From contig CALUYZ010000005.1 in assembly GCA_944325175.1 (NCBI GenBank), positions 15,484-79,483 of the forward strand: a stretch of 64,000 nucleotides of DNA. Direction: 5' to 3'. Position numbers and translations under genes: made by a program. The notes beneath the pieces were generated by a model. It saw only the letters and a list, made by a program, of their open reading frames with translations, did no database searches and had not been told where the DNA came from. The stretch is from Candidatus Gastranaerophilales bacterium. Its GTDB lineage: Bacteria > Cyanobacteriota > Vampirovibrionia > Gastranaerophilales > Gastranaerophilaceae. Below, piece after piece: positions 11,447 to 61,670 of this stretch (position 1 is its first letter; each line of letters starts with the position of its first letter).

Positions 11447-12301
11447 TTAGCTGAAATACTGGAACGTTCTTTCGATATTTGATTGGATGATTGAATCGAC
11501 TGATTCCATTTCTTGTTCTACTGCTTTTTTCTGTGTTTCGATTTGATTTAATTTATTTTCAAGGCGGGTATCTAATGTGTTAACTTTTGCCATTGCTGTG
11601 TTGTATTCAGCTTGGGCAGCTGCGTCATCTTCCGTATAATATCTGGATGTTACGGTTGATAATGATTCAGGGGTTTTTCTTACGTAAAATTCATCGTTTA
11701 CTTTTAATTCGCCTTCATCATTAGTAACAGTTGAAACTATATGGCTTGTTGAATTAGTATTGTCTGTGTCTGAATTGTCTTGTGTCCATAATTGATATGA
11801 GCCGTTTGCAATGCCGTATTGAATTGGTGTATTGGAGCCGTTTGTATTCATTGCTTCAATTACATTTTGATAATATTTATACAATGCGGGGTTTTCATTT
11901 TTTAAATCATCATTAAATGGCTTTAATTCGCCGCCTACTTCAACTTCATAAGTCATTCCATAGGTTGAATTTCCGTCATCATCACCTGAAGCTGTAGCGG
12001 TTGCCTTTACAATAGGTGTTCCGTTTGAATCTGCAATAATAATGCTTGCAGAGCCAACTCCACCTGTTTGTGCTTTCGCAAGTGCATCAAGTGTCATTGT
12101 TTGTTGCTGTGTTTCACCATTTTCAAATACACGACAGGTATAGATTGTGTTTGTCGTTTTGTCAGAATATTCCTGAGCAATAGTTTCTTGTTCCTGAGCA
12201 AGTAGCAAACGTTCCTGTTCTACATTTTGTGCTTGTAGTTCAAGAGCGTCATTTTTTGCTGTCAGTAATAATAGTCTTGCTTGTGATGCTGCTAAACCCA
12301 T
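11447..12301 (-). CDS. Uncharacterised coiled-coil protein, long member of a three-gene family with conserved termini and an inserted Gly/Thr-rich core
   Basis: The N-terminus MGLAASQARLLLLTAKNDALELQ..QE...LA aligns with MGW..LSLRKM.L.QR...LE.RL...SQE of ORFs 60646 and 61185. The C-terminal LE....IETQ..A...E..S.D...QS also aligns. GGTGG RBS upstream. Confidence 0.7.
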   Translation of the reverse strand: MGLAASQARLLLLTAKNDALELQAQNVEQERLLLAQEQETIAQEYSDKTTNTIYTCRVFENGETQQQTMTLDALAKAQTGGVGSASIIIADSNGTPIVKATATASGDDDGNSTYGMTYEVEVGGELKPFNDDLKNENPALYKYYQNVIEAMNTNGSNTPIQYGIANGSYQLWTQDNSDTDNTNSTSHIVSTVTNDEGELKVNDEFYVRKTPESLSTVTSRYYTEDDAAAQAEYNTAMAKVNTLDTRLENKLNQIETQKKAVEQEMESVDSIIQSNIERTFQYFS

Positions 12302-17127: not shown

Positions 17128-17170
17128 TTTTGATAAGGTTTGTTAATTTTTGTTAACTTATTTTTTTTAA

Positions 17171-17244
17171 AAAAGTCAATTTTATATAAAGTATATACTT
17201 TATATATGTAACGAGAGATAATTTTTTACCAGAGGAGAGTAAAA
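17171..17244 (+). promoter_or_regulatory. Conserved promoter/leader block, copy 1 (matches 60551-60645)
   Basis: AAAAG(T/G)CAATTTTA..AAAGTATAT..TTTATATA..TGTA(A)CGAGAGAT shared with the region upstream of ORF 60646. About 42 identical positions over ~50 nt with three short gaps, then a TTACnAnAGnAGAG-like leader. Confidence 0.6.
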
Positions 17245-18729
17245 ATGACACATGTAAGTACTATTAAAACAAATACCCAAACAATGACGCCTGAAGCTTT
17301 GCAAGAAGCTATAAGAAACGGCAGCATTGATTCAACCAAAATAACAGATGTTTCAGTATTTTCACAATCAGCCGATACTTCACAATGTTCTGACGGCAAA
17401 GATGACGGTAAAATCGGCTTCTTTGATGCACTCGGAAGCACTTTAAAAGGTGCTGTGGATGGCGTTGTAAACGGTATCAAAGGTTGCTTTTTTGATGAAA
17501 ACGGTAACTTTAGCTTAGGTAACACTTTAAAAACAGCTTTAACCGTTGGCGCATGCTTTATCCCCGGTGTTGGTCCTGTTATTGCAACCGGTTTATGTGC
17601 CTATGGTGCAGTCAAAGGCGGTGTTGGAATTGCTAAAGGTGTTGCAGCTGCTGCAAGTGCCGAAACAGACGCTGAAGCAAAAGCAGCATTTGAATCAATC
17701 GGTGCAAACGGTGTTGCTACAGCTGCATCAGCAGTTGGTCTTAAAGCCTCTGCAAGTGCGTTGGCATCAAATGTAACAGGCAGCGCTACAGGCAGCACTC
17801 TTAAAAACTTAGGTTCTGTTAAAAATGCAGTAACAAAATCATTTAAAACAGGAAACGGCATTACGGATAAATTAGCAAATGCAGCTGATACACTGACAGG
17901 CGGCTACTATGGCTCAGCTTGGAATAGTGCAACAGGCTCTACAGTTCAAAAATTAGGTCAAGTTGCTCAATCTTCTCTAAAAGATACAGGCGCAAATATC
18001 TATAAAGCTTATGATGTAACTAAAAATACAATAAAAGATAAAACAGCTAAAATTACCAAAAAGAAAACTGATTCAAATCTTACTTCAGAAACGGTAATTA
18101 CTGATAGCTCAGCTAATGCAAAAACGACTACAAAAACAAAAAATGTTTCAGATTTACCTGAAGATATTCAACAATCAATTAAAGACGGAAACTCAACCGG
18201 TCATATAGACAATAATACGACTTACAAAACTGTTGGTGACGGCAAAGTTGAAGTTACAACAACAACTCCCGGAAAAGTAAAAACAACTTATAATACAGAA
18301 TTACTTAAAGACCAATCTAAAGCAGTTCAAAAAGAAGTTGGCAAACTTTCAGCCGGTCAATCAACAAACATTAAGGGTAAAACATATACAAACTTAGGTG
18401 ACGGATATGTTGAAATTACAACTTCAAAAAATCTTGGTCTTGCCGGCGAAACGCTTTATAATCTTGAAAACGCTGCAACGGTAAATGGTTATCAAGGTTT
18501 AACTTCAAATGGCGGAAATGTTAAAGCTGCTGTTGGTGCATTATCTTCAAACGCTCTTAATAATTCTGCGGATGAAATTGAAAATCAAATTCCTTATGCA
18601 TCTCAAACATTTGCGACGGTTGATATTCAATCAGGTTATGAATATGACTTACAAGATTACACAATAATGGATGAAGATCAAGTTAACGAAAGCTATTCTC
18701 AAATTATGGCAAATGCATACGGGCTGTAA
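17245..18729 (+). CDS. Gly/Ala/Thr/Ser-rich hypothetical protein with a glycine-zipper-like hydrophobic segment
   Basis: GGAGAG RBS and a long open frame. Residues ~95-135 (ALTVGACFIPGVGPVIATGLCAYGAVKGGVGIAKG) are small-residue rich. Internal duplicated TYKTVGDGKVEVTTT / TYTNLGDGYVEITTS. No family recognised. Confidence 0.65.
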   Translation: MTHVSTIKTNTQTMTPEALQEAIRNGSIDSTKITDVSVFSQSADTSQCSDGKDDGKIGFFDALGSTLKGAVDGVVNGIKGCFFDENGNFSLGNTLKTALTVGACFIPGVGPVIATGLCAYGAVKGGVGIAKGVAAAASAETDAEAKAAFESIGANGVATAASAVGLKASASALASNVTGSATGSTLKNLGSVKNAVTKSFKTGNGITDKLANAADTLTGGYYGSAWNSATGSTVQKLGQVAQSSLKDTGANIYKAYDVTKNTIKDKTAKITKKKTDSNLTSETVITDSSANAKTTTKTKNVSDLPEDIQQSIKDGNSTGHIDNNTTYKTVGDGKVEVTTTTPGKVKTTYNTELLKDQSKAVQKEVGKLSAGQSTNIKGKTYTNLGDGYVEITTSKNLGLAGETLYNLENAATVNGYQGLTSNGGNVKAAVGALSSNALNNSADEIENQIPYASQTFATVDIQSGYEYDLQDYTIMDEDQVNESYSQIMANAYGL

Positions 18730-18755: not shown

Positions 18756-18785
18756 AACAGGGCTTAAATTAAGCCCTGTTTTTTA
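18756..18785 (+). terminator. Rho-independent terminator
   Basis: aacagggctta-aat-taagccctgtt followed by TTTT. Confidence 0.8.
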
Positions 18786-19616
18786 ATCTATGATAGTAAC
18801 CGTTGCGCCGCCGTTTGAACCATATCTTCCTTCGTATCCGTAGCCGTTTTGATAATCTCCTGCGCTTGTACCGTTGTTATCATCAAATAAATTTATTGTT
18901 TTACTTGAGTTATTTGGCGCATTGTTGTAATTTCCGTTTACAATTCCGTTGTTTGGCGGTGTTGGAACGGTAGAATAGTATGGGTCATTGTTTTCATCAT
19001 CTTTTTTAAATACATTTTTTATCTTATCTACGATGCTTTCTCTGTAATAGTAGTTTGGATTATTGTAAATACCGTTTGTGTAGCCATAGTTGTTGTAATA
19101 ACTATACCCTACAGGCGGTGTAAATCCTGTGATTGTGCCGTATGGTCTTCTGTTCCAAAAGCGGTTATTATACCACCTGTTACAGCCGCAGTTATGCCTG
19201 TGGTATCTGCCATAGCCTCTATAACCTCTATAACCCCCATAATAGCCGCCATACGACGGTCCGAAACCGCCAACACCCATATTTACTACGCCTATACCGG
19301 CTGCAATAAGGCATTTATTTGAATATTTATTTATCATATCCATTCTTTTTGAAAAGCTGCCCGATTGAATTGCGCCGAATATTTTTGCTTCAATTCTTGA
19401 TAGTCTTATATCTGTTGAATCATCCTTGAAAATTTTCCCAAGAATTTTATATTCTGCTTTTTCTAAATTTTTAATATCTATTTTATCTACGGCGTTTTTA
19501 CAGGTGAAATCATTGTATCCGTCTTTTACCTTGTAATTTGCATCTATAATGTTATTCTCTGCCATTGCAGGAATAATGCTTAAAATTAACCCTAAAATTA
19601 TAATGTATTTTTTCAT
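18783..19616 (-). CDS. Secreted hypothetical protein with Gly/Tyr/Arg/Asn-rich low-complexity C-half
   Basis: Signal peptide MKKYIIILGLILSIIPAMA. YGGYYGGYRGYRGYGRYHRH and N/Y-rich tracts. Confidence 0.55.
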   Translation of the reverse strand: MKKYIIILGLILSIIPAMAENNIIDANYKVKDGYNDFTCKNAVDKIDIKNLEKAEYKILGKIFKDDSTDIRLSRIEAKIFGAIQSGSFSKRMDMINKYSNKCLIAAGIGVVNMGVGGFGPSYGGYYGGYRGYRGYGRYHRHNCGCNRWYNNRFWNRRPYGTITGFTPPVGYSYYNNYGYTNGIYNNPNYYYRESIVDKIKNVFKKDDENNDPYYSTVPTPPNNGIVNGNYNNAPNNSSKTINLFDDNNGTSAGDYQNGYGYEGRYGSNGGATVTIID

Positions 19617-41314: not shown

Positions 41315-42676
41315 TTAAGAATTTTTTATAAAAACATGATACTGTGTTCCGTAATTTGTGGTTTGTTTTTGGATATGATCAGATGCTTCTCTTCCGTCAC
41401 CAAGAGCTATTGAAATGTGACCATGGGGGTGATTTGATGAATTTTCCCAAACTACAATAGCGCCTTCAGGAAGATTGACAAGTTCGGATGCATTTTCGTA
41501 TTGATTTGTAACTTCAACAAAATCGCTTCTGGATTGTAAAGCAGGTATTGCTTGATAAGCGCTGTTATAGCTTAAACGAAAACCATAAACTTTTTCCAGC
41601 GTATTATTAACTCCTTTTAAGCACCAACCGGTTGTGCCCATTGAATTTGCAGTTTGTTCGGCGGCAGATGCCAATGTGCTGTTTGAAGGTAAGTTTCCTG
41701 TATAGGTTGTTGTTCCTGTTGAATATGTTGGTGTTGTGCTTGATATATTTTGTTTTGCACTTTGCTCTTTTATGGCTTTTACTTGAACTAAAAGCTCGAT
41801 ATCGTTTGTAAGTTTTAGAGTGTTTGTTGTTAGCTGAATTTCAGCCTGTTCTATGTTTGATTCAAGATTTTCAATTTGCGATTTCAAGGTTGAATCTTCA
41901 TATACCCTATCTTCCATTGTGTGGGTTTGATAGTATTCATTCATTAAATTTGTCATTAGCCCGCTTTGGCTGTCTGTTAAGCTTGAATTATCGGCCTCAA
42001 GCTCTTTGTTGCTATTTTCCGCTGTTTTTATATTTTTATTCGCATTTGTAATTAAGTAATTTAATTTTGTTATTTCACCATTTAATTTTTCTATTTCTTT
42101 TTGAAGTTCGTTAATTTTATCTGCATCTTGATTTGATGATTTTTGAAGTGTTTCAATTTCTTCTTCTTTTTCTTTAATTTCTTTTTCTTTTAGTTCAATT
42201 TCTTCTTTGGCTTCTTCTATTGATATTTTATTTTCTGTAATTATGCTTAAATTTTCTTGAATAGTGCCTGTGTTAAGAGCTATATTTGATATTATATTTT
42301 TAAGCTCTTCATCATATTTTTTCTGTACTTCTTTTGGAATAACATCTGTGCCGTTTGCAAAAATTGCTTCTATTGCATTTTTGCAAGTTTCAATATATGC
42401 ATCAGTTTCTGTTTGTTTATCTTTAATTTCTTGTTGTTTTTCTTCTATTTCTTTTTGAATATCTTCCGTTGTTTTAGAACTTGAAAGCATTTCTTCATAG
42501 CTTGTTTCACTTGTTTCATTTAATTCTACAAGTTCATCTTCAAGTGTTTGATAGTATGCTTCTTTTATTTTACTAACGCCGTATGTACCTGATGTTTCAG
42601 CTTTTTTTACTGTTTCGCTGCCTGAAATTGCACCGGTTATTTTTTTTAGTATTGAATTTATGTAGTTATAGCTCAT
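41315..42676 (-). CDS. Coiled-coil protein with C-terminal papain-like Cys/His hydrolase domain (CHAP/NlpC-P60 superfamily-like); no signal peptide
   Basis: About 300 aa of E/K/Q-rich heptad sequence. The C-terminal ~120 aa have GWCLKGV (candidate nucleophile Cys) and HPHGHISIALGDG (candidate His), spaced as in CHAP/amidase folds. The N-terminus is hydrophilic. Confidence 0.65.
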   Translation of the reverse strand: MSYNYINSILKKITGAISGSETVKKAETSGTYGVSKIKEAYYQTLEDELVELNETSETSYEEMLSSSKTTEDIQKEIEEKQQEIKDKQTETDAYIETCKNAIEAIFANGTDVIPKEVQKKYDEELKNIISNIALNTGTIQENLSIITENKISIEEAKEEIELKEKEIKEKEEEIETLQKSSNQDADKINELQKEIEKLNGEITKLNYLITNANKNIKTAENSNKELEADNSSLTDSQSGLMTNLMNEYYQTHTMEDRVYEDSTLKSQIENLESNIEQAEIQLTTNTLKLTNDIELLVQVKAIKEQSAKQNISSTTPTYSTGTTTYTGNLPSNSTLASAAEQTANSMGTTGWCLKGVNNTLEKVYGFRLSYNSAYQAIPALQSRSDFVEVTNQYENASELVNLPEGAIVVWENSSNHPHGHISIALGDGREASDHIQKQTTNYGTQYHVFIKNS

Positions 42677-42690
42677 TCACTTTATCCTTA

Positions 42691-45573
42691 TTATTTTTCT
42701 TCGTCTTCAAAATCAAGTTCATAATCATATCCGTCTTCGCCTTCGATTATGGTGGTTGAACTTGAAGAACTTTCATTGGATTGAATTTGCATGGTGCTTT
42801 CTTGTTCGATGTTATCTTCTTTTATTTCGTCATTTGTTTCTTCGCTTGTTAAGCCTGATTCTTTGTCATTTTGTGTTTCTATAAAGCTGTTTGAATTATC
42901 AACTTTTACAAAGTCTTCTTCTTCGCATGGAATATCTTCTGTTTTATCGTCAACTGTTTCATCAGGAATTTTTTCAGGCTCATTTTCTTCTGTTGTTACC
43001 TCTTCATTGCTTGTTTCAGGAGCCTTATCAATAATTATTGTTTCTTTGTCTTCATTTGTTTCTGATGTTGTTTGTTCGGGTTCTTGAGTTTTTAGAGGTA
43101 TGTCATTTGCTGTTTCTTCCTGTTTTGGTTCTGTTATTTCTTCCGTTGTTTCTTGGTCTTGAATTGGGGGTTCAATATTTGGATTATCGGGAATGACATC
43201 ATCCTCTGGTTCACATGGTTTTTTGTCAATAATTGTTGTATCTTCATCTTTGTTCATTTTATCAAGAATTTCTTGAAGAATATCTTCAATTTTGCTTGTA
43301 TCTACATTGTTGTTTACGTTGGTTGAATTATCAATACTTCCTATATTCGTGGAATTATCCGTATTGTTATTTGTTGTTGAATTATCTTGATAAATATTGG
43401 TTGTTGAATTATCAGTATAATTGTTGCTGTTATTTATTGAATTATCAGTAGAATTATTACTGTTTGATACTGAATTATCGTTTGTAATATCCGTATTGGT
43501 TGTTGTGTTATTTTGAGTATTGTTACTGTTTGTTGTTGTATTGTTATTTGTTATGTTATTTTCAGGATTTTTAGATGTTTCTTCTTCTTTTATTTCATTC
43601 AATTTTTGATTTAATATGATTAAAACTTGTTGGTATCCGCTTACATCACAACCTATGCTTTGCGATGTTTGAATATCTGTTTGAATTTTGCTTATGATTG
43701 AATAAATTTCATCTAATGATGTTGCTTTATCTGCATTGCTGATATAAATTTGTACTTTAGAATTTATTGCTGCCTCTTCACGACGTTTTAGCGTTTCAAT
43801 AAGAGATTGCGCACCTGAAACACTTACTGAAATGGAAGAATATTTTGATATCATAGAGCTTATTTCGCTCAATAATTGACGTCTTTCAGAACTTGTAGTT
43901 GCGCTATTAACTCTGTTTTCAAATGCTTTTATTTCTTCATCTACAAGAATTTGTTGAGTTTGCCTGATTTCTTTTAATTTTGCTTCAAGTCTGCTGCAAT
44001 CAAGCCCTTCTATTTGCTTTAATTCTTCATAATTTGCACTAAGTTCAATGTAAAGCTCTTCAAGCTCAAAAACAGAAAGGTTTGCAAGACTTATGCTTTG
44101 TACGTAGCTGTCTAACTCTTTTTGCGCTTCAGATTTTAGTGTTTCTGATGTTTTATTTATATCATCTGTGCTTGTCTCATATTGTGTTGAATTTTTATCT
44201 ACTTGTTGCGCAGTTGTTGCTGCTTGATTGCTTCCATTGACAAGACCTTGTACGGTTCCTGTTATGCCGTTATTTGCACTGTTTCCTGTTGTATAGGTGT
44301 TAAGCATTGTTTCAGCTGTTGTGTCAGCTTCTTTTTGGTTTGTTTCCTGTATTTTTTCAAGCAACTTTTCTAATTTCGATGTATCAAGACCTTTGCCTTC
44401 TGCATCTTTAATTAATGTTGAAATATCTTCATACAAGGTATTAAGGGTTGTTGTATCAGATATTACTTCATCGGTTACATCTAAACTTACTTGTTGTGCG
44501 TATGAATCAAGATATTCTTGTGCATATTTAAGGCTGTCATCTCCTGTTCCTAATTTTGTCATCAGTTCATTCAAGCCTTCAATCTCGATGCCGTATGTTT
44601 TACTAACCTCATAAAAAGGTTCTAATTTTGTTTGTGCTTCTATAATTTTATCTATATTTTCTGTAATGCTTCCTACATCTGTTATATCGTCAAAGTTAAA
44701 TTCGCTGTCAAGCAGCCCTTTTAAGTCGCTATTAACCTCATCTACTACTGTTTTTCCGCCATTTTGAAGTTTTTCTGCTGCCAAATTCCATGAATTATCG
44801 AGTCTGTCTGCTGTGTTTGTTATATTTTGTTGTAATTCAGCTAATTTTCTTTCCATTTCTTCATTCTGTTTAGATGAAGTGTATGCCCAAATTCCTGCGC
44901 CTACTGCTACAATTCCTGCTATTCCGGCCACTACCCAACCTGCAACCGGAACTGCAGCTGCAACTGCTGCTACCGTGCCTGCACCGCTTGTTACTGCAGC
45001 TGCTGATATTGCTGCAGCCGAAGAGGCTATGCAATATGCCGGAACCACAACTGCTACTGCGCCTGCAACGCCTGACGTTACAGCCTTTCCAACAACTCCG
45101 TTTTTCTCAAATTCAACGCCTGCCGCTTTTCCAAGTTCGCCTATTGCAATAGACATATTCGTCATATCTGCAAGAACTGCTGCAATTTCATCAGGATTAT
45201 CTTCATCCAATGATGCAATTTTTTTATCCAGTTCATTTACTTCATCTTCAATTTTTTCAAATATTGCAATAAGGTCATCAAGGCTGCTGTCTTCTGTCAG
45301 CTTGCTTATACCTGTTGAATTTGCATAAATTTTATAACTGTCGTAGTCAAAACCTTCAGGATATTCCTCTTCACCCTGAACTTCGCCTTCTTCGCCCAGT
45401 TGTATTTCTTGGTATTCGTCTTCGTTTATTTGTTCTGCCTTATTGCTTGCTATATAATTTGAAATAATTTCTTGCTTTTCTGATGTAGTTGATGCATTGT
45501 TTATTTCATTTAAAATAGCCTGTGAGTTAACCCTGTAGTATTTCCCGCTAATTTCCACTGAATATTCGCTCAT
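42691..45573 (-). CDS. Giant (~960 aa) hypothetical protein: soluble N-domain, Gly/Ala-zipper membrane core, about five helical repeats, Asn/Thr-rich DNS-repeat tract, highly acidic tail
   Basis: AAGGAAGG RBS before the ATG at 45573. Hydrophobic small-residue region at nt 44881-45096. Repeats share a ..LDSY.Q..SL....LY..IS.....G.D.S.LE.L..I pattern. 14-nt gap to the downstream hydrolase gene suggests an operon. Confidence 0.7.
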   Translation of the reverse strand: MSEYSVEISGKYYRVNSQAILNEINNASTTSEKQEIISNYIASNKAEQINEDEYQEIQLGEEGEVQGEEEYPEGFDYDSYKIYANSTGISKLTEDSSLDDLIAIFEKIEDEVNELDKKIASLDEDNPDEIAAVLADMTNMSIAIGELGKAAGVEFEKNGVVGKAVTSGVAGAVAVVVPAYCIASSAAAISAAAVTSGAGTVAAVAAAVPVAGWVVAGIAGIVAVGAGIWAYTSSKQNEEMERKLAELQQNITNTADRLDNSWNLAAEKLQNGGKTVVDEVNSDLKGLLDSEFNFDDITDVGSITENIDKIIEAQTKLEPFYEVSKTYGIEIEGLNELMTKLGTGDDSLKYAQEYLDSYAQQVSLDVTDEVISDTTTLNTLYEDISTLIKDAEGKGLDTSKLEKLLEKIQETNQKEADTTAETMLNTYTTGNSANNGITGTVQGLVNGSNQAATTAQQVDKNSTQYETSTDDINKTSETLKSEAQKELDSYVQSISLANLSVFELEELYIELSANYEELKQIEGLDCSRLEAKLKEIRQTQQILVDEEIKAFENRVNSATTSSERRQLLSEISSMISKYSSISVSVSGAQSLIETLKRREEAAINSKVQIYISNADKATSLDEIYSIISKIQTDIQTSQSIGCDVSGYQQVLIILNQKLNEIKEEETSKNPENNITNNNTTTNSNNTQNNTTTNTDITNDNSVSNSNNSTDNSINNSNNYTDNSTTNIYQDNSTTNNNTDNSTNIGSIDNSTNVNNNVDTSKIEDILQEILDKMNKDEDTTIIDKKPCEPEDDVIPDNPNIEPPIQDQETTEEITEPKQEETANDIPLKTQEPEQTTSETNEDKETIIIDKAPETSNEEVTTEENEPEKIPDETVDDKTEDIPCEEEDFVKVDNSNSFIETQNDKESGLTSEETNDEIKEDNIEQESTMQIQSNESSSSSTTIIEGEDGYDYELDFEDEEK

Positions 45574-45758
45574 AAAATACCTTCCTTTTTTTAAGACACA
45601 CTTCATTAAATCGGTTTTTATATTTTTTTTCTTTAGGAAAAAAATTATTTCTTAACAAACTTGTTACATTTAAGTTAATTTTTGTAAAATAATTTTTCTT
45701 TTTTGAAATTTCGCTGTCTATATATACTTTTTACATATATTCTGGAGAAAAATTCGCT

Positions 45759-47807
45759 ATGATTTCTGAATCTTTTGATTTATACCTTTTGAAAAATTCT
45801 GTCACCGTCAATTCTTTGGATGACACTAATTTAGATTTGAAAAGCGCACAAAATGAACAAGGTAAAAAAACAAATTCTACAGATGATGCCTCTGAGGATG
45901 AGTATCTTGAAGTTGATATAAAAGATGATGCCGATGATGAAACTGTTTTATCGGAAGATTTACCTTTAGTAAAAGAAGATGATTCAGATTCTTCAACGGA
46001 TGTTAAAAGCGATGAAAATGCATCTTTCGCATCGGATACCAAGCTTGATTCTTCTTTAGAAACAGAAAATGAAAAAGATGATGCTCAAGGCATAGATATA
46101 AAAGAATTCAAAAATATCATATCCGAAAATTCCAAAAAAGATGAGCTTATGGCAGAATATGGCTATGATAAGATATTTGACTATATCGATGAAAATAATG
46201 ACGGTCAAATTTCAGATGAAGAAATTAAAAATTTAGGTTTTGATATTACCGATATAAAAAATTTAACCGTTGAAAACATTCAAGAGTTGGCTAAACTTGC
46301 AGGTTTGCCTGTTGTGAGCCTTGAAGATGACAATGAAGATAAAAATAAAGATGATTCAATAGGGCTTACTCCTGAACTTTTGGAAAAATTAAAAAAGGCT
46401 TTTAGCGAAGATGACAATTCAAATGTTTTAAGCGAGCAAACAGTTAATACAGCATCACCTGTTAATTATAGTTATACACCCGCTAATACAGGCGTTTCCG
46501 GCGGAAATATTTCAAGTGCAAATTATTCAAATTCAAACGCTTCATCTAAAGCTCAGCCGGATGAAATGTCTATGGATGAGCTTTTAGATGAAAAGCAAAC
46601 AAAACAAAATGCGCTTTCAGATGCAAATTCTAAAGTTGCAGATGTTATGTCTAATAATGACGTTGAAGTTAAAGCAGCAATCGAAAATTCTGATAATAAG
46701 CAAGAAGAATATGAAAAATGCCTTAAAGAAGATGAAAAAATTTCAGATGAGCTAAAAGAAAGGCAAGAAAACAATCAAAAAGATATTGAAAGTAAAGAGA
46801 AAGCTATTTGTGACAAAGAAACTGAAATTGTAGAAGCTGAAGCAAAAATTCAAAATTTAGATAGCGAAATTTCTTTAATCGATAATAAAATTAGCGCACT
46901 TAATGCTTCATTGGCTGCATTGCCAGATAAAACAGAAGATAATCAATCAAGACATTCTGAAATTGATGCTCAAAAAGCAAATATTGAAAGTCAAATTGCA
47001 GATGCAAAGAACGACAAACAAGCAAAAGAAGATGAAAAATCTGAAATTAAAGATAAAAAAAACGATAATGAAAAAGAGCTTGAAGAACTGAAAGATGAAC
47101 TTAAAGAACTTGAAGATGAACGAGCTGATATTGAAGATGAAATTTTAAATTCTTGTTCAAATGAAACCAAACAAAAGCTTGAAGCTTGGCAAGATGCAAG
47201 AGAAAATATAGAAACCGTTAAAAATGAAAGACTTGCGCTTTTTAAAGAGGAAGTCCAAACGGCACAAGATGAACTCGATGAAGTTAATTCTTCAATTATG
47301 GAGCTTGAAAATATGCAAATTCAACTTCAAAATCGTGTTGGTGATGAAGGCGAAGATGTTGTTGATTTTGCAACAAAACTTGATGGTCTGAGTGCATCTG
47401 AAATGAAACAAATTATGCAAGCTGCCGGTTGCAGATTTGACGATGGCGCTTGGTGTGCTGATTTTGTTACCTATGTTACAAAACAAATTTATGGAAATGA
47501 TTCCACCCCCGGCAATTTTGCAAACAGTTGTTCCAATACGGCATCTTGTACAACGATAGGTGCTTGGGCAGATGCTAACGGTATTTTAACAACCGATTCA
47601 AGTCAAGTTGAACCGGGTGATTTTATCTTGTATCCAAAAAACGGTTCTTATGGACATATCGGAATAGTAACTTCAGTAAATGCAGATGGTACCGTTAATA
47701 CGGTTGAAGGTAATACAAGTTATGATAACGGCAGCTATAATGGCGGTGTTGTCAATCAATGGACGGGAAGAACCGGCTCTTATGTTTTGATGCATAAGCT
47801 GGCATAG
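45759..47807 (+). CDS. Acidic N-region plus EF-hand-like loop plus long coiled coil plus C-terminal CHAP domain protein; no signal peptide
   Basis: CHAP motifs WCADFVTYV (Cys) and YGHIGIVTSV...TVEGNTS (His, polar). DENNDGQISDEE fits the 12-residue EF-hand loop. About 250 aa E/K-rich coiled coil. Confidence 0.8.
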   Translation: MISESFDLYLLKNSVTVNSLDDTNLDLKSAQNEQGKKTNSTDDASEDEYLEVDIKDDADDETVLSEDLPLVKEDDSDSSTDVKSDENASFASDTKLDSSLETENEKDDAQGIDIKEFKNIISENSKKDELMAEYGYDKIFDYIDENNDGQISDEEIKNLGFDITDIKNLTVENIQELAKLAGLPVVSLEDDNEDKNKDDSIGLTPELLEKLKKAFSEDDNSNVLSEQTVNTASPVNYSYTPANTGVSGGNISSANYSNSNASSKAQPDEMSMDELLDEKQTKQNALSDANSKVADVMSNNDVEVKAAIENSDNKQEEYEKCLKEDEKISDELKERQENNQKDIESKEKAICDKETEIVEAEAKIQNLDSEISLIDNKISALNASLAALPDKTEDNQSRHSEIDAQKANIESQIADAKNDKQAKEDEKSEIKDKKNDNEKELEELKDELKELEDERADIEDEILNSCSNETKQKLEAWQDARENIETVKNERLALFKEEVQTAQDELDEVNSSIMELENMQIQLQNRVGDEGEDVVDFATKLDGLSASEMKQIMQAAGCRFDDGAWCADFVTYVTKQIYGNDSTPGNFANSCSNTASCTTIGAWADANGILTTDSSQVEPGDFILYPKNGSYGHIGIVTSVNADGTVNTVEGNTSYDNGSYNGGVVNQWTGRTGSYVLMHKLA

Positions 47808-47843
47808 AAATATAAATTTACAGAAACAGCATAGCGATTTTTT

Positions 47844-47875
47844 GGCGTCTTATTGATATGAGGCGCCTTTTTTTA
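47844..47875 (+). terminator. Rho-independent terminator
   Basis: ggcgtct-N10-aggcgcc followed by T7. A second hairpin at 47878-47911 may serve the convergent minus-strand gene. Confidence 0.75.
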
Positions 47876-47931
47876 TGTAATAAGAGCCGGCATGGTGACC
47901 GGCCCTTATTATCCTTTGTTTATTTGTAACC

Positions 47932-48390
47932 TTAGCCTTGAATTGTTCCGTTAAATGTTTCAAAAGGGTTTTTTGCTAATTGTGCTTCTTCTTTTGGTTC
48001 TGCTTGCTCAAGCGCTTGCATCTCGGGTTGAATGACTGTTGGCTCCATTTCTTTGATTGCTTGAGGAATGTCGTTTGCTGTTTCGTTATTATTTTCTGCT
48101 TGCGCTTGTTTGTCGTTGTTTTTGTTAAATAATCCAACGGCTTTATCTTTAATTGCAATAAATTCTTCTTTTTTTAGGCTTAATAAGGTTGTAGCTGCTG
48201 CGGCAAAAACACCTGCGATGCCTGCTTTTAAAATTCTTTTGCTTGTTTTCATGCCGTTAACCGCATCTTTTGCGGGTTTTGTTGCTAAAAATGCGCTTCC
48301 GGCTGAAAGCACTGTAGCAGCTCCAATGTATTTTGCTCTTGTTCTGTTTTCTTTATCTTGAAAAGCTGTTTGTATTGAATTTATTTGCAT
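47932..48390 (-). CDS. Small membrane protein (two small-residue-rich helices), paralog of 48404-48685
   Basis: A(F/Y)Q.KEN...I.AA...LS.G..LA..K....K..AGI..V pattern shared with the upstream gene. Acidic/Gln-rich tail. Confidence 0.6.
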   Translation of the reverse strand: MQINSIQTAFQDKENRTRAKYIGAATVLSAGSAFLATKPAKDAVNGMKTSKRILKAGIAGVFAAAATTLLSLKKEEFIAIKDKAVGLFNKNNDKQAQAENNNETANDIPQAIKEMEPTVIQPEMQALEQAEPKEEAQLAKNPFETFNGTIQG

Positions 48391-48403
48391 TTGTTTCCCC
48401 TTT

Positions 48404-48685
48404 TTAACCTTGATGTGTAAACAGTTTTCCTGCTTCTTTGTCGTATGCTGTCTGATTATCCGTATTTTTGTTTTTAAGTTTACTTACACCTGCTCTTATT
48501 GTGTCGATAACAACTGAAATTCCCGCCACAATTAAACCAACTTTGAGGGCATTTTTCGGGTTTTGTCCTTTATTAAAAGCTAAAGTTAAACCTGTGCTTA
48601 GTACTGCACTGCTTGCTGCATTTATTGCTACTTGTTTTGCATTTTCTTTTTGATATGCATTTGTGTATGAACCTTCTATGCGCAT
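48404..48685 (-). CDS. Small membrane protein, paralog of 47932-48390
   Basis: Same pattern as above. Start placed at MRIEGSY after AGGAAGG; the ORF extends to 48721. Confidence 0.55.
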   Translation of the reverse strand: MRIEGSYTNAYQKENAKQVAINAASSAVLSTGLTLAFNKGQNPKNALKVGLIVAGISVVIDTIRAGVSKLKNKNTDNQTAYDKEAGKLFTHQG

Positions 48686-48834
48686 TTTACACCCAACCTT
48701 CCTGTTGTAATTATAAAACATAAAATAAAATTTTTTTGCTATTATACCTTATTGCATTAGTTCTTATGTGCAATTTTTACATTTGTTAACTTTTAATAAA
48801 ATGCTTATGCTTGAGTATTTATGGGCGGTGTTTT

Positions 48835-49797: not shown

Positions 49798-50769
49798 CTA
49801 TTTTTTTACACAACGTACGAGATATAATTCTGATCGGGGACGCTTTCCTCGGTCGCCATTTACAAAAGCCTGATACCAAGCCATACCGGAATTGCCTGAT
49901 GATACGGTTGTGCTTGACCAGTATCTGCTTTTGCTTTCACTTAAATTAATTAATGGTGCATTTACAAATAAAGATGTCAGTTCATCTTTATCAGGTAGCC
50001 TTAAATTTTCTGCCATATTTTTGCACGCTGTTGGCGCATCGATTGTTTCTTTGTTTTCTGAATAGTGAGGCACTGTTGAAGCGTAATCTTTGTCATAAGG
50101 AACAGGTGCTACAACTACAGGGTTTTTATTGTAGAGTGCTGTCATAAACCCAATATCTTTACCTATTTCATTAGGTCCTTCTTTACCATTTAGGTCGTAT
50201 AAAAAATTTACACACATATTGTTTTGTGGATAGTGATTGATTGACACACTTGATGAACACATAGGATTATAGTAAACAGCGATAGATTCACCATTTACCG
50301 TTTCAAAAGCAGCAGCTTTAGTATCAACCACGCTTCCTTTTTCTCCGTCCACATGAAGCCCGTTTAATAATTGGCTATTTAACTCGCTCATTTTAGTTGG
50401 AAAACTAATTTCAGAAACTGCATCTAGTGTTGCAACTTTACTTGGAATACCGCAAGATGAAAGCTTATCAGGACCACAAACATTGTTTATTTTATAAACC
50501 TTTGATAATGCATCCAAAATAAAGCTTTCAGCTGCCGTATCTTCTGTTGCGGTTCCTTCTTCATTGGTTTCAAATGTTCCATATCCACCCAACGTATTCA
50601 TCTGCCCAATCGCTTGCGCCATTCTGGCATGAAGCGCTTTCCTCTGTGCATCCCATGCTTTTTCGTTAACATTTACAAGTAAACTAGGCAACGTAATTGC
50701 AGCCACAATGCCAATAATTGCCAAAGTAATTAAAACTTCAGCAAGCGTAAAGCCTCTTGTCTTTTTCAT
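49798..50769 (-). CDS. Prepilin-type N-terminal cleavage/methylation domain protein with DUF1566-like C-terminal domain (paralog P1)
   Basis: MKKTRG|FTLAEVLITLAIIGIVAAITLP (G-1, F+1, E+5). C-terminal RLPDKDEL.SLF....YWSST....AWYQ.F..G....VRCV pattern. Confidence 0.82.
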   Translation of the reverse strand: MKKTRGFTLAEVLITLAIIGIVAAITLPSLLVNVNEKAWDAQRKALHARMAQAIGQMNTLGGYGTFETNEEGTATEDTAAESFILDALSKVYKINNVCGPDKLSSCGIPSKVATLDAVSEISFPTKMSELNSQLLNGLHVDGEKGSVVDTKAAAFETVNGESIAVYYNPMCSSSVSINHYPQNNMCVNFLYDLNGKEGPNEIGKDIGFMTALYNKNPVVVAPVPYDKDYASTVPHYSENKETIDAPTACKNMAENLRLPDKDELTSLFVNAPLINLSESKSRYWSSTTVSSGNSGMAWYQAFVNGDRGKRPRSELYLVRCVKK

Positions 50770-55146: not shown

Positions 55147-56118
55147 TTATTTCTCAACACAACGTACATAATGCGTATCTGAACGTTTGCCACGGGAAAG
55201 ATGCCCAACATTGAAGTTTTGGTACCATGCCAAACCGGACGACCCAAGTGAAATTACAGAACCTGACCAATAGCCACTTATACTTTTATTTAGTTCAATA
55301 AGTGGGGAGTTAATAAAAAGCGATGCCAGTTCATCTTTATCAGGAAGTCTTAAATCTTCTGACATAGTTTTGCAAACAGCTTGTGCATCAACCGCCTCTG
55401 TTTCTGTTGAATATTGTTGCACAGTCGATTTATAATCAGTACTGTAGGGAATAGGTGCCACAACTATAGGGCTCTTATTATTAAAAGCTGTTATGAAACC
55501 AATATCTTTTCCTACTTGATTAGGACCTTCGCTACCATTTAAGTCATAAACAAAATTAACACACATTCTGTTTTTGCTGTAGTGATCAAAGGTTTTATCA
55601 GAGCTGCATAGTGGATTATAAAAAACTGCTATTGATTCCCCATTTACTGTTTCAAAAGCAGCCGCTTTTGTATCAGCAACATCACCTTCTTCGCCTTCAT
55701 AACGTTGTCCGTTTAACAATTTATCATTCAGTTCACTCATCTTTGTCGGAAAAGTAAGCTCAGATGTTCCGTTTAAAGTTGTAATTTTACTTGGAATACC
55801 GCAAGATGAAAGTTTATCGGGTCCGCAAACATTGTTAATCTTATAAACCTTTGACAATGCATCTAAAATAAAACTCTCAGCTGCCGTATCAACCGTTGCG
55901 GTTCCTTCTTCATTGGTTTCAAATGTTCCATATCCACCTAATGTATTCATCTGCCCTATTGCTTGAGCTAATCTTGCATGAAGAGCTTTTTTCTGTGCAT
56001 CCCATGCTTTTTCGTTAACATTTACAAGTAAACTAGGCAAAGTAATTGCTGCTACAATACCAATAATTGCTAACGTAATCAAAATTTCAGCTAAAGTAAA
56101 CCCTGTTTTCTTTTTCAT
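55147..56118 (-). CDS. Prepilin-type/DUF1566-like protein (paralog P2)
   Basis: MKKKTG|FTLAEILITLAIIGIVAAITLP. The first ~110 aa are near-identical to P1/P3 and the C-terminus has diverged. Start moved to the ATG after AAAGG; the ORF extends to 56178. Confidence 0.8.
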   Translation of the reverse strand: MKKKTGFTLAEILITLAIIGIVAAITLPSLLVNVNEKAWDAQKKALHARLAQAIGQMNTLGGYGTFETNEEGTATVDTAAESFILDALSKVYKINNVCGPDKLSSCGIPSKITTLNGTSELTFPTKMSELNDKLLNGQRYEGEEGDVADTKAAAFETVNGESIAVFYNPLCSSDKTFDHYSKNRMCVNFVYDLNGSEGPNQVGKDIGFITAFNNKSPIVVAPIPYSTDYKSTVQQYSTETEAVDAQAVCKTMSEDLRLPDKDELASLFINSPLIELNKSISGYWSGSVISLGSSGLAWYQNFNVGHLSRGKRSDTHYVRCVEK

Positions 56119-56282
56119 CAAAATTACCTTTCTTTTATCAGCAAATTTAAAAAAATGTATAATGAAGCAATACTTCACATATAGTTATATTATCATCTTT
56201 TCACCTTGGCTTCAATGTATGAATTATAAATTATTATTTTAGCTTTTTGTACCACTATTACGGAATTATATTGCAACAAAAA

Positions 56283-56474: not shown

Positions 56475-57449
56475 ATGAAAAAGTTTAAAGGCTTTACGCT
56501 TGCTGAAGTATTAATTACTTTAGCTATTATTGGCATTGTGGCTGCAATTACGTTGCCTAGTTTGCTTGTAAATGTTAACGAAAAGGCATGGGATGCACAG
56601 AGGAAAGCACTTCATGCAAGAATGGCGCAAGCTATAGGGCAGATGAATACGTTGGGTGGATATGGAACATTTGAAACCAATGAAGAAGGAACCGCAACGG
56701 TTGATACGGCAGCTGAAAGCTTTATTTTGGATGCATTGTCAAAAGTTTATAAGATAAACAATGTCTGTGGTCCTGATAAGCTTTCATCTTGCGGTATTCC
56801 AAGTAAAGTTGCAACGTTGAACGGGGTATCAGAAATTAATTTTCCGACAAAGATGAGCGAGCTGAATTCATTTCTTTTGAATGGATTACACAAGATAAAT
56901 GAAGATGGAAATATTGTTGATACAAAGGCTGCTGCATTTGAAACGGTTAATGGTGAATCGATTGCGGTTTTTTACAATCCGCTTTGTGGCTCGGATAGCT
57001 CTGCAAGTCATTATGTTCAAAACAAAATGTGTGTAAATTTTATCTACGACCTAAATGGAAGTGAAGGTCCTAATGAAGTGGGCAAAGATGTCGGATTTAT
57101 GACTGCATTGTATAATAAAAATTCATCTGTTGTTGCGCCTTTTCCGTATAAGGTTAATTATAAAACAAAGGCAGTGTCATACTCTGATAGTTTAGATACA
57201 AAAGATGCATCAGAAATTTGTAAACTTCAAAATGAAGGGCTTAGATTGCCAAACAGAGATGAATTGGCATCATTATTTATTAATAGCAGGCTTATTAACA
57301 TTGTCGGGGACGGTTCAGGCGGGTATTGGTCGGGCTCAATTATTTCGGGTGGTACTAACGGTTTAGCATGGCATCAATATTTTAATGACGGAATTAGAGA
57401 AACGAGTTTACGTTCTACGGAAAGATATATAAGATGTCTTTATAAATAG
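56475..57449 (+). CDS. Prepilin-type/DUF1566-like protein (paralog P3)
   Basis: MKKFKG|FTLAEVLITLAIIGIVAAITLP. C-terminal RLPNRDELASLF...YWSGS...AWHQ.F..G...IRCL. Confidence 0.82.
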   Translation: MKKFKGFTLAEVLITLAIIGIVAAITLPSLLVNVNEKAWDAQRKALHARMAQAIGQMNTLGGYGTFETNEEGTATVDTAAESFILDALSKVYKINNVCGPDKLSSCGIPSKVATLNGVSEINFPTKMSELNSFLLNGLHKINEDGNIVDTKAAAFETVNGESIAVFYNPLCGSDSSASHYVQNKMCVNFIYDLNGSEGPNEVGKDVGFMTALYNKNSSVVAPFPYKVNYKTKAVSYSDSLDTKDASEICKLQNEGLRLPNRDELASLFINSRLINIVGDGSGGYWSGSIISGGTNGLAWHQYFNDGIRETSLRSTERYIRCLYK

Positions 57450-60351: not shown

Positions 60352-60375
60352 AATCGCAATTAATAAATTGCGATT
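60352..60375 (-). terminator. Hairpin with U-run on the minus strand
   Basis: aatcgcaat-taataa-attgcgatt. On the minus strand it is followed by TTTTCTTT. Confidence 0.5.
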
Positions 60376-60492
60376 AATGCCTTTTTCTCTATAAGTCCCA
60401 AAGCCATAGTAGCGGCTTTTATAAAATTCTTGATTATTCTTTCATAGCAAGGGTTTTGGTTCGTTTGCCTTACATTATAATTAAAACATTTT

Positions 60493-60540
60493 ATATATAC
60501 GAATTTCATATTTTATATATACTGTTACATTTCTTAATAT
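60493..60540. promoter_or_regulatory. Conserved non-coding block, copy B (matches 12371-12420)
   Basis: See 12371-12420. Lies 105-155 nt upstream of ORF 60646. Confidence 0.5.
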
Positions 60541-60550
60541 TAAGAAATTA

Positions 60551-60645
60551 AAAAGGCAATTTTAAAAAGTATATTTTTTTTATATACATGTACGAGAGAT
60601 CAAAAGTTACAAAAGAGAGACTAAACAGAAATGGAGTAAAGACCA
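60551..60645 (+). promoter_or_regulatory. Conserved promoter/leader block, copy 2 (matches 17171-17244)
   Basis: See 17171-17244. Confidence 0.6.
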
Positions 60646-61134
60646 ATGGGCTGGGTAACACTGTCACTCAGAAAAATGGTTTTGACTCAAAGAGTATCAC
60701 AATTAGAAAACAGATTACTTCATTTGAGTCAAGAACAACAATCATTAGCAAATAGTTCTTCATACACAGAAAGAGCTATAGGTCTTGAAAAACAAGAAGC
60801 TTATTCTTCTCTTATGAACAATTACTCTGGCAACCTGAACAATATATCAGACTTTGTATCAAGCGGAAACGCAAGCGACCCTGCAAGCTTAATTCAATAT
60901 CAAGCAGAACTGCAACAACAACAGCTTGATTACATGTACAACAAAATGATAATTGATTCAGTGTTTACACAAAAAGAACAATCACTACAAGATGAAATAA
61001 ACAACAAACAAACTTACTTATCACTGGAACAAGAACAAGTAGAAACCCAATTAGAAGCAGCAAGAGCTGAACTTGAACAAATGGATGAAGCATGTTCACA
61101 AGATATTCAATCAAGTACAATTAGCTTAGTATAA
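60646..61134 (+). CDS. Uncharacterised coiled-coil protein, short family member 1
   Basis: MGWVTLSLRKMVLTQRVSQLENRL... and ...LEQEQVETQLEAARAELEQMDEACSQDIQSSTISLV. Paralog of 61185 and 11447. GGAG RBS. Confidence 0.7.
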   Translation: MGWVTLSLRKMVLTQRVSQLENRLLHLSQEQQSLANSSSYTERAIGLEKQEAYSSLMNNYSGNLNNISDFVSSGNASDPASLIQYQAELQQQQLDYMYNKMIIDSVFTQKEQSLQDEINNKQTYLSLEQEQVETQLEAARAELEQMDEACSQDIQSSTISLV

Positions 61135-61184
61135 CGGATTAAAACGATAAACACCACAAACAAAGGAAAAAGGAGAAACACACT

Positions 61185-61670
61185 ATGGGCTGGGCAGCAT
61201 TATCATTAAGAAAGATGACGCTCAAACAAAGAATCAACAACTTGGAACAAAGGCTTGTAAATATAAGCCAAGAACTCCAATCAATGTACGATTCGTCATC
61301 TTACGCACAACAAGCATTGGGCGTTGAAAAATCAAACGCACTTGCAAACTTACAACAAACATATTCAAACAATACATCAACATTAGCCGGTACATACCAA
61401 GGCGCAACAGATACATCTGCATTAAATGAATACAACACGGCATTGCAACAAGAACAACTTTCTTTAATGTATAATCAAATGATTCAAAACTCATTATTTA
61501 CAGCAAAAGAATCAGCAATGCAAGATTCAATCAACCAAGCAGAAACTCAATTACAATTAGAACAAGAACAAGTTGAAACACAATTAGAAGCAGCAAGAGC
61601 TGAATATGATTCACTCGATCAAGCTTGCTCACAAGATATTCAATCAGGCGCTATAAGCTTGGTATCATAA
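61185..61670 (+). CDS. Uncharacterised coiled-coil protein, short family member 2
   Basis: MGWAALSLRKMTLKQRINNLEQRL... and ...LEQEQVETQLEAARAEYDSLDQACSQDIQSGAISLVS. AAGGAG RBS. Tandem with 60646. Confidence 0.7.
   Translation: MGWAALSLRKMTLKQRINNLEQRLVNISQELQSMYDSSSYAQQALGVEKSNALANLQQTYSNNTSTLAGTYQGATDTSALNEYNTALQQEQLSLMYNQMIQNSLFTAKESAMQDSINQAETQLQLEQEQVETQLEAARAEYDSLDQACSQDIQSGAISLVS

Follow-up and report, generated by a model that had tools for sequence, protein, structure and literature searches.

The axial subunits of type III secretion systems (T3SS), such as FliC, the SctF proteins MxiH and PrgI, and EspA, are signal-less proteins whose paired terminal helices hold a variable, outward-facing connector. 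A single genome can encode several paralogs with different middles, and the genes are stand-alone and highly expressed, with products that are poor in Lys and rich in Ser, Thr, Asn, Gln and Ala. Here we describe a tandem gene pair that appears to be alike in these features. The pair, A1 and A2, lies in a stretch of 64,000 nucleotides from a Candidatus Gastranaerophilales bacterium (assembly GCA_944325175.1, contig CALUYZ010000005.1, positions 15,484 to 79,483 of the forward strand), hereafter called the window, which has a GC content of 32%. Our analysis supports the view that the two genes represent a new helical-hairpin protein that is restricted to its lineage and probably abundant; its base is invariant and its tip permissive, and two paralogs of it are maintained. 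An earlier note, made from the sequence alone, had likened them to the tandem major/minor subunit pairs of filament or needle-type polymers and to secreted helical-hairpin substrates; the assignment of major and minor roles to A1 and A2 is a conjecture.

Other described systems also come close. PspA, Vipp1 (IM30) and ESCRT-III begin, like the pair, with MG and a hydrophobic helix that is followed by a long alpha-hairpin, and they are abundant and self-assembling, properties that for the pair are proposed. Vipp1 is a hallmark of photosynthetic cyanobacteria, the sister lineage. The WXG100 proteins (EsxA-EsxB) are likewise signal-less helix-turn-helix hairpins encoded by adjacent paralogous genes, and for the pair, too, a heterodimer is plausible. 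Finally, bacterial coiled-coil cytoskeletal proteins (crescentin, FilP/Scy, the cyanobacterial CCRPs, and LfiA/LfiB of Anabaena) share with the pair their lineage specificity and their lack of enzymatic domains; LfiA and LfiB are a tandem-encoded pair that co-polymerises.

Two maintained paralogs of a nameless family

The two genes and their ribosome-binding sites are as follows.

60646-61134, plus strand: A1, 162 amino acids (aa), helical-hairpin protein with N-terminus MGWVTLSLRK and C-terminal helix LEQEQVETQLEAARAE...SQDIQ..ISLV
61185-61670, plus strand: A2, 161 aa, paralog of A1
60633-60636, plus strand: ribosome-binding site of A1, GGAG, 9 nt 5' of the ATG, read from the sequence
61170-61175, plus strand: ribosome-binding site of A2, AAGGAG, 9 nt 5' of the ATG, read from the sequence

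That two open reading frames (ORFs) lie at these coordinates, with a 50-nt spacer and a strong ribosome-binding site each, had been described in the earlier note, and the sequence bears out every one of these points. The same is true of the paralogy that it had proposed. The two proteins are 54% identical over their full length (BLASTP, E = 2e-58) and share the N-terminal pattern MGW..LSLRKM.L.QR...LE.RL...SQE; of the 20 residues at 123-142, 18 are the same, and the middle part of ~60 residues is divergent. Inspection of the two sequences found neither a signal peptide nor a transmembrane segment, again in agreement with that note.

We found 72 close homologs of A1, of 160-166 aa and all unnamed, and a profile search of 1.8 billion representatives returned 299 clusters at E <= 0.001, with lengths of 145-556 aa. 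We call this group family A; its hidden Markov model (HMM) gives A1 a score of 217 bits and A2 one of 195 bits. The source labels are always "hypothetical protein", from Gastranaerophilales or an unclassified metagenome-assembled genome, and a genome scan detected 73%-identical copies in Candidatus Galligastranaerophilus. Because of these homologs, a ratio of nonsynonymous to synonymous substitution rates (dN/dS) of ~0.1 and the kept synteny, A1 and A2 are genuine genes and not chance ORFs. Family A is thus a lineage-restricted family of gut and environmental melainabacteria (Gastranaerophilales and relatives), without an assigned function. It is named in no database, and its chromosomal position is fixed in all the lineages examined.

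We compared this site in the close relatives L003-5, the 44%-identity relative L006-8, the distinct lineage L011/12 and the environmental sample L020. The family-A gene always follows a divergent DNMK-like kinase gene, downstream of rpmH-rnpA-PRK. The copy number is one in the 44%-identity relative and three in L011. Other genera keep both types, with separate A1-type and A2-type orthologs in each of L001, L002 and L003, so the duplication is old and both copies have been maintained. The window proteins are 90.7% (A1) and 91.9% (A2) identical to their L003 orthologs, with a dN/dS of 0.095 for A1. In the same comparison, neighbouring housekeeping genes show 84-92% identity and dN/dS values of 0.05-0.11; diversifying selection was not seen, as the value of A1 resembles those of its neighbours. 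A mobile-element origin was rejected, because tblastn found no match to the pair among phages or plasmids.

Gene conversion is not needed to account for the identical C-termini. Protein-level constraint suffices, because in L001 the identity of 18/20 is kept with only 14 of 27 identical codons. Over residues 103-142 of the window pair (60952-61071 vs 61488-61607), codons are identical at 23 of 27 identical residues, and a recent local conversion between A1 and A2 in the window lineage is possible. Separately, a 1.2-kb ENA contig encodes a protein of 313 aa (P0327) in which an A1 shortened near its C-terminus is joined directly to a complete A2. It may be a natural Rosetta-stone fusion, or else an artefact of assembly or deletion.

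A predicted hairpin with an invariant base and a variable tip

The AlphaFold2 model of A1, built from a 33-sequence alignment, predicts an antiparallel hairpin with a helix at residues 2-73, a turn at 74-78 and a second helix at 79-161. The mean predicted local distance difference test score (pLDDT) is 83, and is lowest at both termini in this monomer model. The long members of family A align to the profile over two separate segments, one for each terminal helix; therefore, the hairpin turn is the site at which between 0 and ~400 aa are inserted. The helical hairpin postulated earlier, conserved in its terminal helices and variable in between, is thus upheld by the model, and the middle proves to be the insertion point in relatives.

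The conservation is concentrated at the opposite end. Over ~61 effective sequences, the N-terminal decapeptide MGWVTLSLRK is near-invariant on all helix faces; an Arg ladder on helix 1 (R9, R16 and R23, at heptad spacing) is invariant or almost so, and the C-terminal helix is conserved and rich in Glu and Gln. Given that this conservation extends past the a/d core positions and exceeds what an intramolecular two-helix coil needs, it suggests contacts with other chains or partners. As defining features of an 'MGW hairpin' family we took the N-terminus M-G-W-x-T-L-x-L-R-K, a C-terminal-helix motif (..E.EQ..[IV]ETQ[LM]EA...E.......S..I...[ST]I.L) and a predicted hairpin whose turn may carry an insert; A1 and A2 have them all. 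Family A is thus an unannotated family on a known design principle.

The tip inserts of the long members are mostly novel. Some are beta-rich and rich in Ser, Thr, Asn and Gly, that of P0262 is an EF-hand/dockerin-type module, and those of P0087 and P0178 are charged and helical. The family varies widely in both copy number and tip size. At the DNMK-adjacent site of L011 (8073-11758; also in L012) there are three tandem members of 552, 279 and 209 aa, and in L009 (290-5785) three members of 276, 403 and 330 aa lie within 6 kb and adjoin an EF-hand protein.

Similarity to described families

At their cutoffs, the profiles of Pfam, NCBIfam, PHROGs, PADLOC and the PDB sequence set gave no match to the pair. 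In particular, there was no profile hit to a known cytoplasmic family; such a hit would, according to the earlier note, have refuted its proposal. Foldseek with the A1 model returned only generic coiled-coil hairpins (best E = 0.23). We also searched 91 divergent members singly against Pfam, and no family recurred in more than three of them.

The needle-type identity suggested in the earlier note did not survive. The Pfam family T3SS_needle_F (PF09392) matched residues 64-93 of A1 with 17.1 bits (E = 0.006), below its gathering score of 29.4, and had no match in A2. This sub-threshold match occurs in one of the 91 members and falls in the least conserved segment, and was dismissed as chance. 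An hhalign comparison with MxiH gave a probability of 0.35% (the MxiH, PspA and Salmonella FliJ sequences used as hhalign references were entered by hand). SctF proteins are ~80-aa helix-turn-helix proteins encoded within a T3SS cluster together with their chaperones, whereas the pair proteins have 160 aa and no T3SS genes beside them; the hairpin arm is ~75 residues in the pair and ~35 in needles. Flagellin, which the flagellar T3SS exports with FliS as chaperone, has a four-helix arrangement of D0 and D1. Neither Flagellin_N (PF00669) nor Flagellin_C (PF00700) matched A1 or A2 at E <= 10, and neither was recurrent in the 91 members. Unlike the axial subunits, to which we found no homology, the pair has an invariant, helical N-terminus in place of a disordered signal and shows no linkage to T3SS genes, and its export is only proposed.

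A distant second family

Elsewhere in the window is a longer gene that the earlier note had called a long paralog of the pair.

11447-12301, minus strand: family-B relative, 284 aa, N-terminal helix MGLAASQARLLLLT..., C-terminal helix ...LENKLNQIETQKKAVEQEMESV...NIERTF, and a beta-rich tip insert of ~170 aa

Its AlphaFold2 model (pLDDT 82) has helices 2-49 and 226-283 as a stalk that carries the beta-rich tip domain. It belongs to a family of its own, family B, with 102 matches in Gastranaerophilales (189-494 aa) that have conserved termini and a variable middle. Close paralogy with A1 and A2 did not hold, as pairwise BLAST is weak (E = 0.001-0.01); relatedness did, because the C-terminal helices of the two families align in hhalign with 90% probability (E = 1.5e-6) and the cross-family HMM matches are reciprocal (4e-8 and 1e-7). 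An N-terminal HMM gave a modest signal across families, with a median of 7.8 bits against 4.7 for the 95th percentile of composition-matched shuffles. Both families show the C-terminal pattern LE..L.Q[IV]ETQ..A.E.E.ES and the N-terminal pattern MG[WL]...R9...L20-E21. With moderate confidence, these sequence features suggest that A and B form one superfamily.

Family B has its own conserved site, between VKOR-DsbA/queH and hisF-GGDEF, and its own conserved upstream element, which differs from the promoter and leader of the pair. Foldseek of the family-B model against PDB and BFVD gave nothing significant; flagellar filament structures appeared for this model only, with E = 0.12-0.19 and TM-scores of 0.27-0.33. 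In L013 and L014, a FliS gene and a weakly FliT-like gene lie 4-6 kb from the family-B gene. In L013 (14092-17405; also in L014) these orphan genes come after unknown proteins of 82 aa and of 723 aa, the latter very acidic, and no flagellin or FliD was recognisable in the 20-kb locus.

A promoter and leader of regulon type

Upstream of the pair, and of one other gene in the window, we identified the following elements.

60534-60608, plus strand: conserved promoter and 5' leader, 75 nt (nhmmer and promoter scan)
60550-60564, plus strand: AAAAAGGCAATTTTA box in this promoter
60548-60575, plus strand: sigma-70-like TTAAAA-16-TATATT (promoter scan)
60589-60600, plus strand: TGTACGAGAGAT leader box
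60352-60375, both strands: bidirectional terminator-like hairpin, with A-tract, stem-loop and T-tract
17170-17219, plus strand: second copy of the promoter/leader, AAAAAGTCAATTTTA ... TGTAACGAGAGAT, ahead of ORF 17245-18729
17245-18729, plus strand: ORF of 494 aa, signal-less, rich in Ser, Thr, Asn, Gly and Ala, with the glycine-zipper segment FIPGVGPVI

The conserved promoter asserted in the earlier note is real: nhmmer recovers the element at 60534-60608 ahead of orthologous genes whose proteins are as little as 44% identical (E = 1e-11 to 1e-17). The pair does not have it to itself. Apart from the element itself, the region of the window that matches it best precedes ORF 17245, as had also been claimed, and scores 22.5, where the highest null score of 30 simulations was 18; TGTA(A)CGAGAGAT occurs twice against zero expected. 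By nhmmer alone, the two upstream regions match weakly (E = 0.69). In a metagenome scan with the leader motif, the composite promoter/leader was found in another lineage (L021:991-2060 and L032), upstream of tandem small proteins of 124-262 aa that end in the same type of glycine zipper (…FIPGVGTVIGGVVGG…); FIPGVGxVI is common to these and to ORF 17245. We regard ORF 17245 as co-regulated with the pair and not homologous to it, and, together with the L021/L032 proteins, as part of a co-regulated glycine-zipper protein family. Because unrelated genes carry it too, the element is a regulon-type promoter/leader and not the mark of one machine. On the same ground, the idea of a structural gene set for one assembly is a conjecture, since the promoter also drives unrelated glycine-zipper proteins in another lineage. 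The element is a first handle on a regulon in Gastranaerophilales.

Scanning of the 50-nt spacer detected no terminator or promoter, which makes co-transcription of A1 and A2 probable. In four other species the hairpin at 60352-60375 has compensatory changes; the best reading of it is a bidirectional terminator that would insulate the pair from the divergent DNMK-like gene and from the rpmH-rnpA-PRK operon. The adjacent ~130 nt (60376-60510) are also conserved among the 73-91% orthologs. The upstream region and the hairpin matched no Rfam family.

Several other candidates in this region were rejected: a riboswitch, for lack of an Rfam match; a small upstream gene, as the 49-aa minus-strand ORF at 60360-60509 is broken in all other species; a conserved RNA structure in the 5' untranslated region, for which no convincing alifold structure was obtained; constraint on the first codons at the nucleotide level, as distant lineages have GGA in place of GGC; and a sigma-28 (FliA) promoter, because by eye the spacing of the upstream elements does not fit TAAA-N15-GCCGATAA. 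The promoter box AAAAGGCAATTTTA has a third, exact copy at 3550-3563, but this falls within the coding region for a SWIM/SNF2 helicase (3416-6583) and is a chance occurrence, which advises caution in calling short AT-rich boxes promoters.

Codon usage and amino-acid composition

By their use of C-ending two-fold codons (0.47 vs a median of 0.23), A1 and A2 take the first two places among 54 window genes, and this bias is not accompanied by raised GC at third codon positions. Given this codon bias and the strong ribosome-binding sites, we infer that the pair is highly expressed. The proteins also have the lowest Lys content of the 54 (2.5-3.1% vs a median of 9.0%), and their content of Ser, Thr, Asn, Gln, Gly and Ala is among the highest in the window. 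The family-B protein of ORF 11447 is fourth lowest in Lys, and the rest of this Lys-poor tail consists of transporters, prepilins and a porin. Adjoining ORF 17245 is a minus-strand gene (18783-19616) with the fourth-highest C-ending codon bias in the window; its 277-aa product has a signal peptide and a low-complexity C-terminal half rich in Gly, Tyr, Asn and Arg (…GYYGGYRGYRGYGRYHRH…).

Other genes of the window and of related loci

The window otherwise holds housekeeping genes (mraW, a penicillin-binding protein gene, hisF, queH, pth, rml genes, proC and rnpA, among others) and ComEC. A cluster at 41315-48721 encodes unannotated proteins that are all signal-less. One, of 453 aa, is a coiled coil whose C-terminus is Cys/His peptidase-like (NlpC/CHAP-like); another, of 971 aa, combines a long hydrophobic segment rich in Gly and Ala with low-complexity regions rich in Asn and Thr; a third, of 682 aa, has EF-hand, coiled-coil and CHAP parts. 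Two more, of 152 and 105 aa, are small paralogs that contain hydrophobic segments and whose codon bias is raised. The earlier note had proposed a check of whether this cluster co-occurs with the family. We rejected a link between the cluster and the pair, as the two have neither homology nor a promoter in common, only composition and codon bias.

Three prepilin-like paralogs of ~320 aa with N_methyl and Lcl_C (49798-50769 and 55147-56178 on the minus strand, 56475-57449 on the plus strand) are interleaved with rmlC/rmlD and metallophosphoesterase genes. In the environmental locus L020 (12101-16659), the family-A gene is followed at a distance of 1.5 kb by genes for a TolC-like OEP, a C39-peptidase ABC exporter and an AprE/HlyD-type adaptor, with intervening small ORFs. 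These genes are a set for type I secretion or bacteriocin export, in an arrangement not seen in the other lineages.

Discussion

We consider it fairly probable that A1 and A2 are abundant, self-assembling structural hairpins. According to the model, each chain would form one antiparallel two-helix hairpin of ~110 Å. Its base, made up of MGWVTLSLRK, the Arg ladder and the Glu/Gln-rich C-terminal helix, would be the assembly interface, and base-to-base or side-by-side packing may give homo-oligomers, A1/A2 hetero-oligomers or a fibre. The turn would point outward and be free to vary, and in paralogs it would carry the extra domains. A1 and A2 would act as non-redundant subunits of ancient duplication, produced from an insulated unit of their own with a strong regulon-type promoter/leader and high translation. 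Self-assembly through the base and an A1/A2 heteromer are what we infer from these features, and the P0327 fusion is a weak hint of the latter.

Where such an assembly might act is a more speculative matter. Most likely the proteins would leave the cytoplasm and form a fibre of the surface or envelope; export would follow a non-Sec route, for which the flagellar type III export core retained in most non-flagellated Gastranaerophilales is a candidate. Complete flagellar sets are found in only ~25% of Gastranaerophilales genomes (bioRxiv 10.64898/2026.04.24.720558). In ~75% of the genomes, flhB, fliI and flgG are kept without a full flagellum, and a secretion role for the retained genes has been postulated (bioRxiv 10.64898/2026.04.24.720558; Soo et al. 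2014, PMC4040986). An exported fibre is favoured by the composition, the types of tip domain, the multiplicity of paralogs and these orphan flagellar export genes. The FliS/FliT-like genes near family B in L013/L014 are a further, indirect hint. The full chain, from self-assembling hairpin subunit to export, is a tentative proposal in which we place limited trust. Further still, and rather unlikely in our estimate, families A and B might together be the cargo of the 'orphan' flagellar export apparatus. They would then be a new class of T3SS-exported hairpins unrelated in sequence to flagellin and needle proteins, forming a surface fibre with tips (absent, beta-rich or Ca-binding) that paralogs and lineages swap, and MGWVTLSLRK would be a new kind of conserved export or assembly signal.

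A number of points weigh against a self-assembling, exported subunit. There is no sequence or structural similarity to axial, needle or flagellin proteins, and the 64-kb window contains no T3SS, T7SS (type VII secretion system), flagellar or other secretion-system genes. In 8 other lineages, no secretion or flagellar genes lie beside the family either (loci L001-L012 and L015-L020), the FliS/FliT-like genes of L013/L014 being the exception. Type III signals are normally disordered and not conserved in sequence, whereas the N-terminus of the pair is invariant and predicted to be helical. The pair evolves no faster than the adjacent enzymes, unlike typical surface antigens, and family-A genes occupy conserved housekeeping sites of the chromosome. 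The 160-aa forms have a short turn as their tip and so have little to display. The arguments from composition and codon bias rest on ~160 residues and ~30 informative codons per gene, and oligomerisation is itself deduced.

The alternative that survives best is a coiled-coil scaffold in the cytoplasm or at the inner membrane, either a cytoskeleton-like or a membrane-shaping lattice, in which the invariant amphipathic N-terminus would bind the membrane or a partner and the tip inserts would serve as adaptors. It would resemble the bacterial coiled-coil-rich proteins or the hairpin polymers of the PspA/Vipp1 type. Such a scaffold would suit the lack of a signal peptide, transmembrane segment or nearby export machinery, the strong purifying selection equal to that on housekeeping neighbours, and the conserved position among such genes. 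The helical MG[WL] start recalls alpha0 of PspA/Vipp1, the heptads rich in Gln, Glu and Arg are typical of cytoplasmic coiled coils, and some tip inserts (P0087, P0178) are charged and helical. However, A1 and A2 are extreme outliers against the cytoplasmic proteins of their own genome, with the lowest Lys and among the highest Ser/Thr/Asn/Gln/Gly/Ala content, which sets them apart from coiled-coil cytoskeletal proteins. Other tip inserts are beta-rich and rich in Ser, Thr, Asn and Gly, and one is of the dockerin/EF-hand type. Similarity to PspA and ESCRT-III is absent: PspA/IM30 (PF04012) has no Pfam match, no PspA or Vipp1 entry is in the Foldseek top 50 for A1, and a PspA identity was rejected on an hhalign probability of 0.18%. 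The model has two helices only, without the helices alpha3-alpha5 of PspA/Vipp1, and the hairpin tip of the pair, unlike theirs, tolerates insertions. The known cytoskeletal coiled coils are long parallel dimers with stutters and not single 160-aa hairpins, and no homology to them was detected. The absence of a signal and of linkage, the invariant helical N-terminus and the housekeeping-like evolution favour an internal scaffold, and the composition and tip domains speak for the outside. We regard the scaffold as possible, if somewhat unlikely, and almost as likely as an exported subunit.

A non-structural role in a catalytic or chaperone complex, as a FliJ/SctO-like ATPase stalk, a prefoldin/Skp-like holdase or a GreA/DksA-like factor, seems very improbable. 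FliJ/SctO is an antiparallel coiled coil of ~147 aa, so that its size and fold match, and the lineage retains fliI. Among the 91 members, two match SPAM (PF02090, SctO; best E = 7e-4) and two match Prefoldin_2. However, these Pfam matches are at noise level, no commoner than others to coiled coils, and a FliJ identity (PF02050) was rejected on an hhalign probability of 0.12% against Salmonella FliJ. The genes are stand-alone and never lie in a fliHIJ-type operon in any context examined, and a stalk in an ATPase ring is not compatible with high-expression signatures, multiple paralogs and insertions that reach 400 aa.

Least probable of all is a secreted hairpin heterodimer in the manner of WXG100/EsxA-EsxB or LXG-Lap, that is, a 1:1 four-helix bundle that serves as a substrate or targeting adaptor and might escort co-regulated glycine-zipper proteins such as ORF 17245: the tandem signal-less paralogs, the promoter/leader common with glycine-zipper proteins in two lineages, the A1-A2 fusion P0327 and a Foldseek entry (8gmh, TelA-LXG/LapA3/LapA4; E = 1.2) point towards it, but the pair has 160 aa against ~100, no WXG in the turn and no C-terminal YxxxD/E, there is no match to WXG100 (PF06013), LXG or DUF3130 and one to DUF3958 in only one of 91 members, no FtsK/SpoIIIE-type (T7SS) ATPase lies near any member in the loci examined, and the one copy or three copies of very different size in many lineages do not suit an obligate 1:1 pair. 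To our knowledge, no T7SS has been found in this diderm lineage.

Gastranaerophilales are widespread uncultured gut symbionts that are enriched in non-industrialised humans and conserved across primates (bioRxiv 10.64898/2026.04.24.720558). Their cell biology is almost uncharted, and the pair seems to rank with the most strongly expressed genes of its region. If the proposal of a surface fibre is true, the pair would be a major antigen or adhesin of Gastranaerophilales, and would explain the partial flagellar export machinery. If the internal scaffold is true, the sister group of the photosynthetic cyanobacteria would possess a bacterial cytoskeletal element of a new kind. Either way, family A offers a well-defined and potentially engineerable design, in which an invariant base is combined with a tip that tolerates 0-400 inserted residues.

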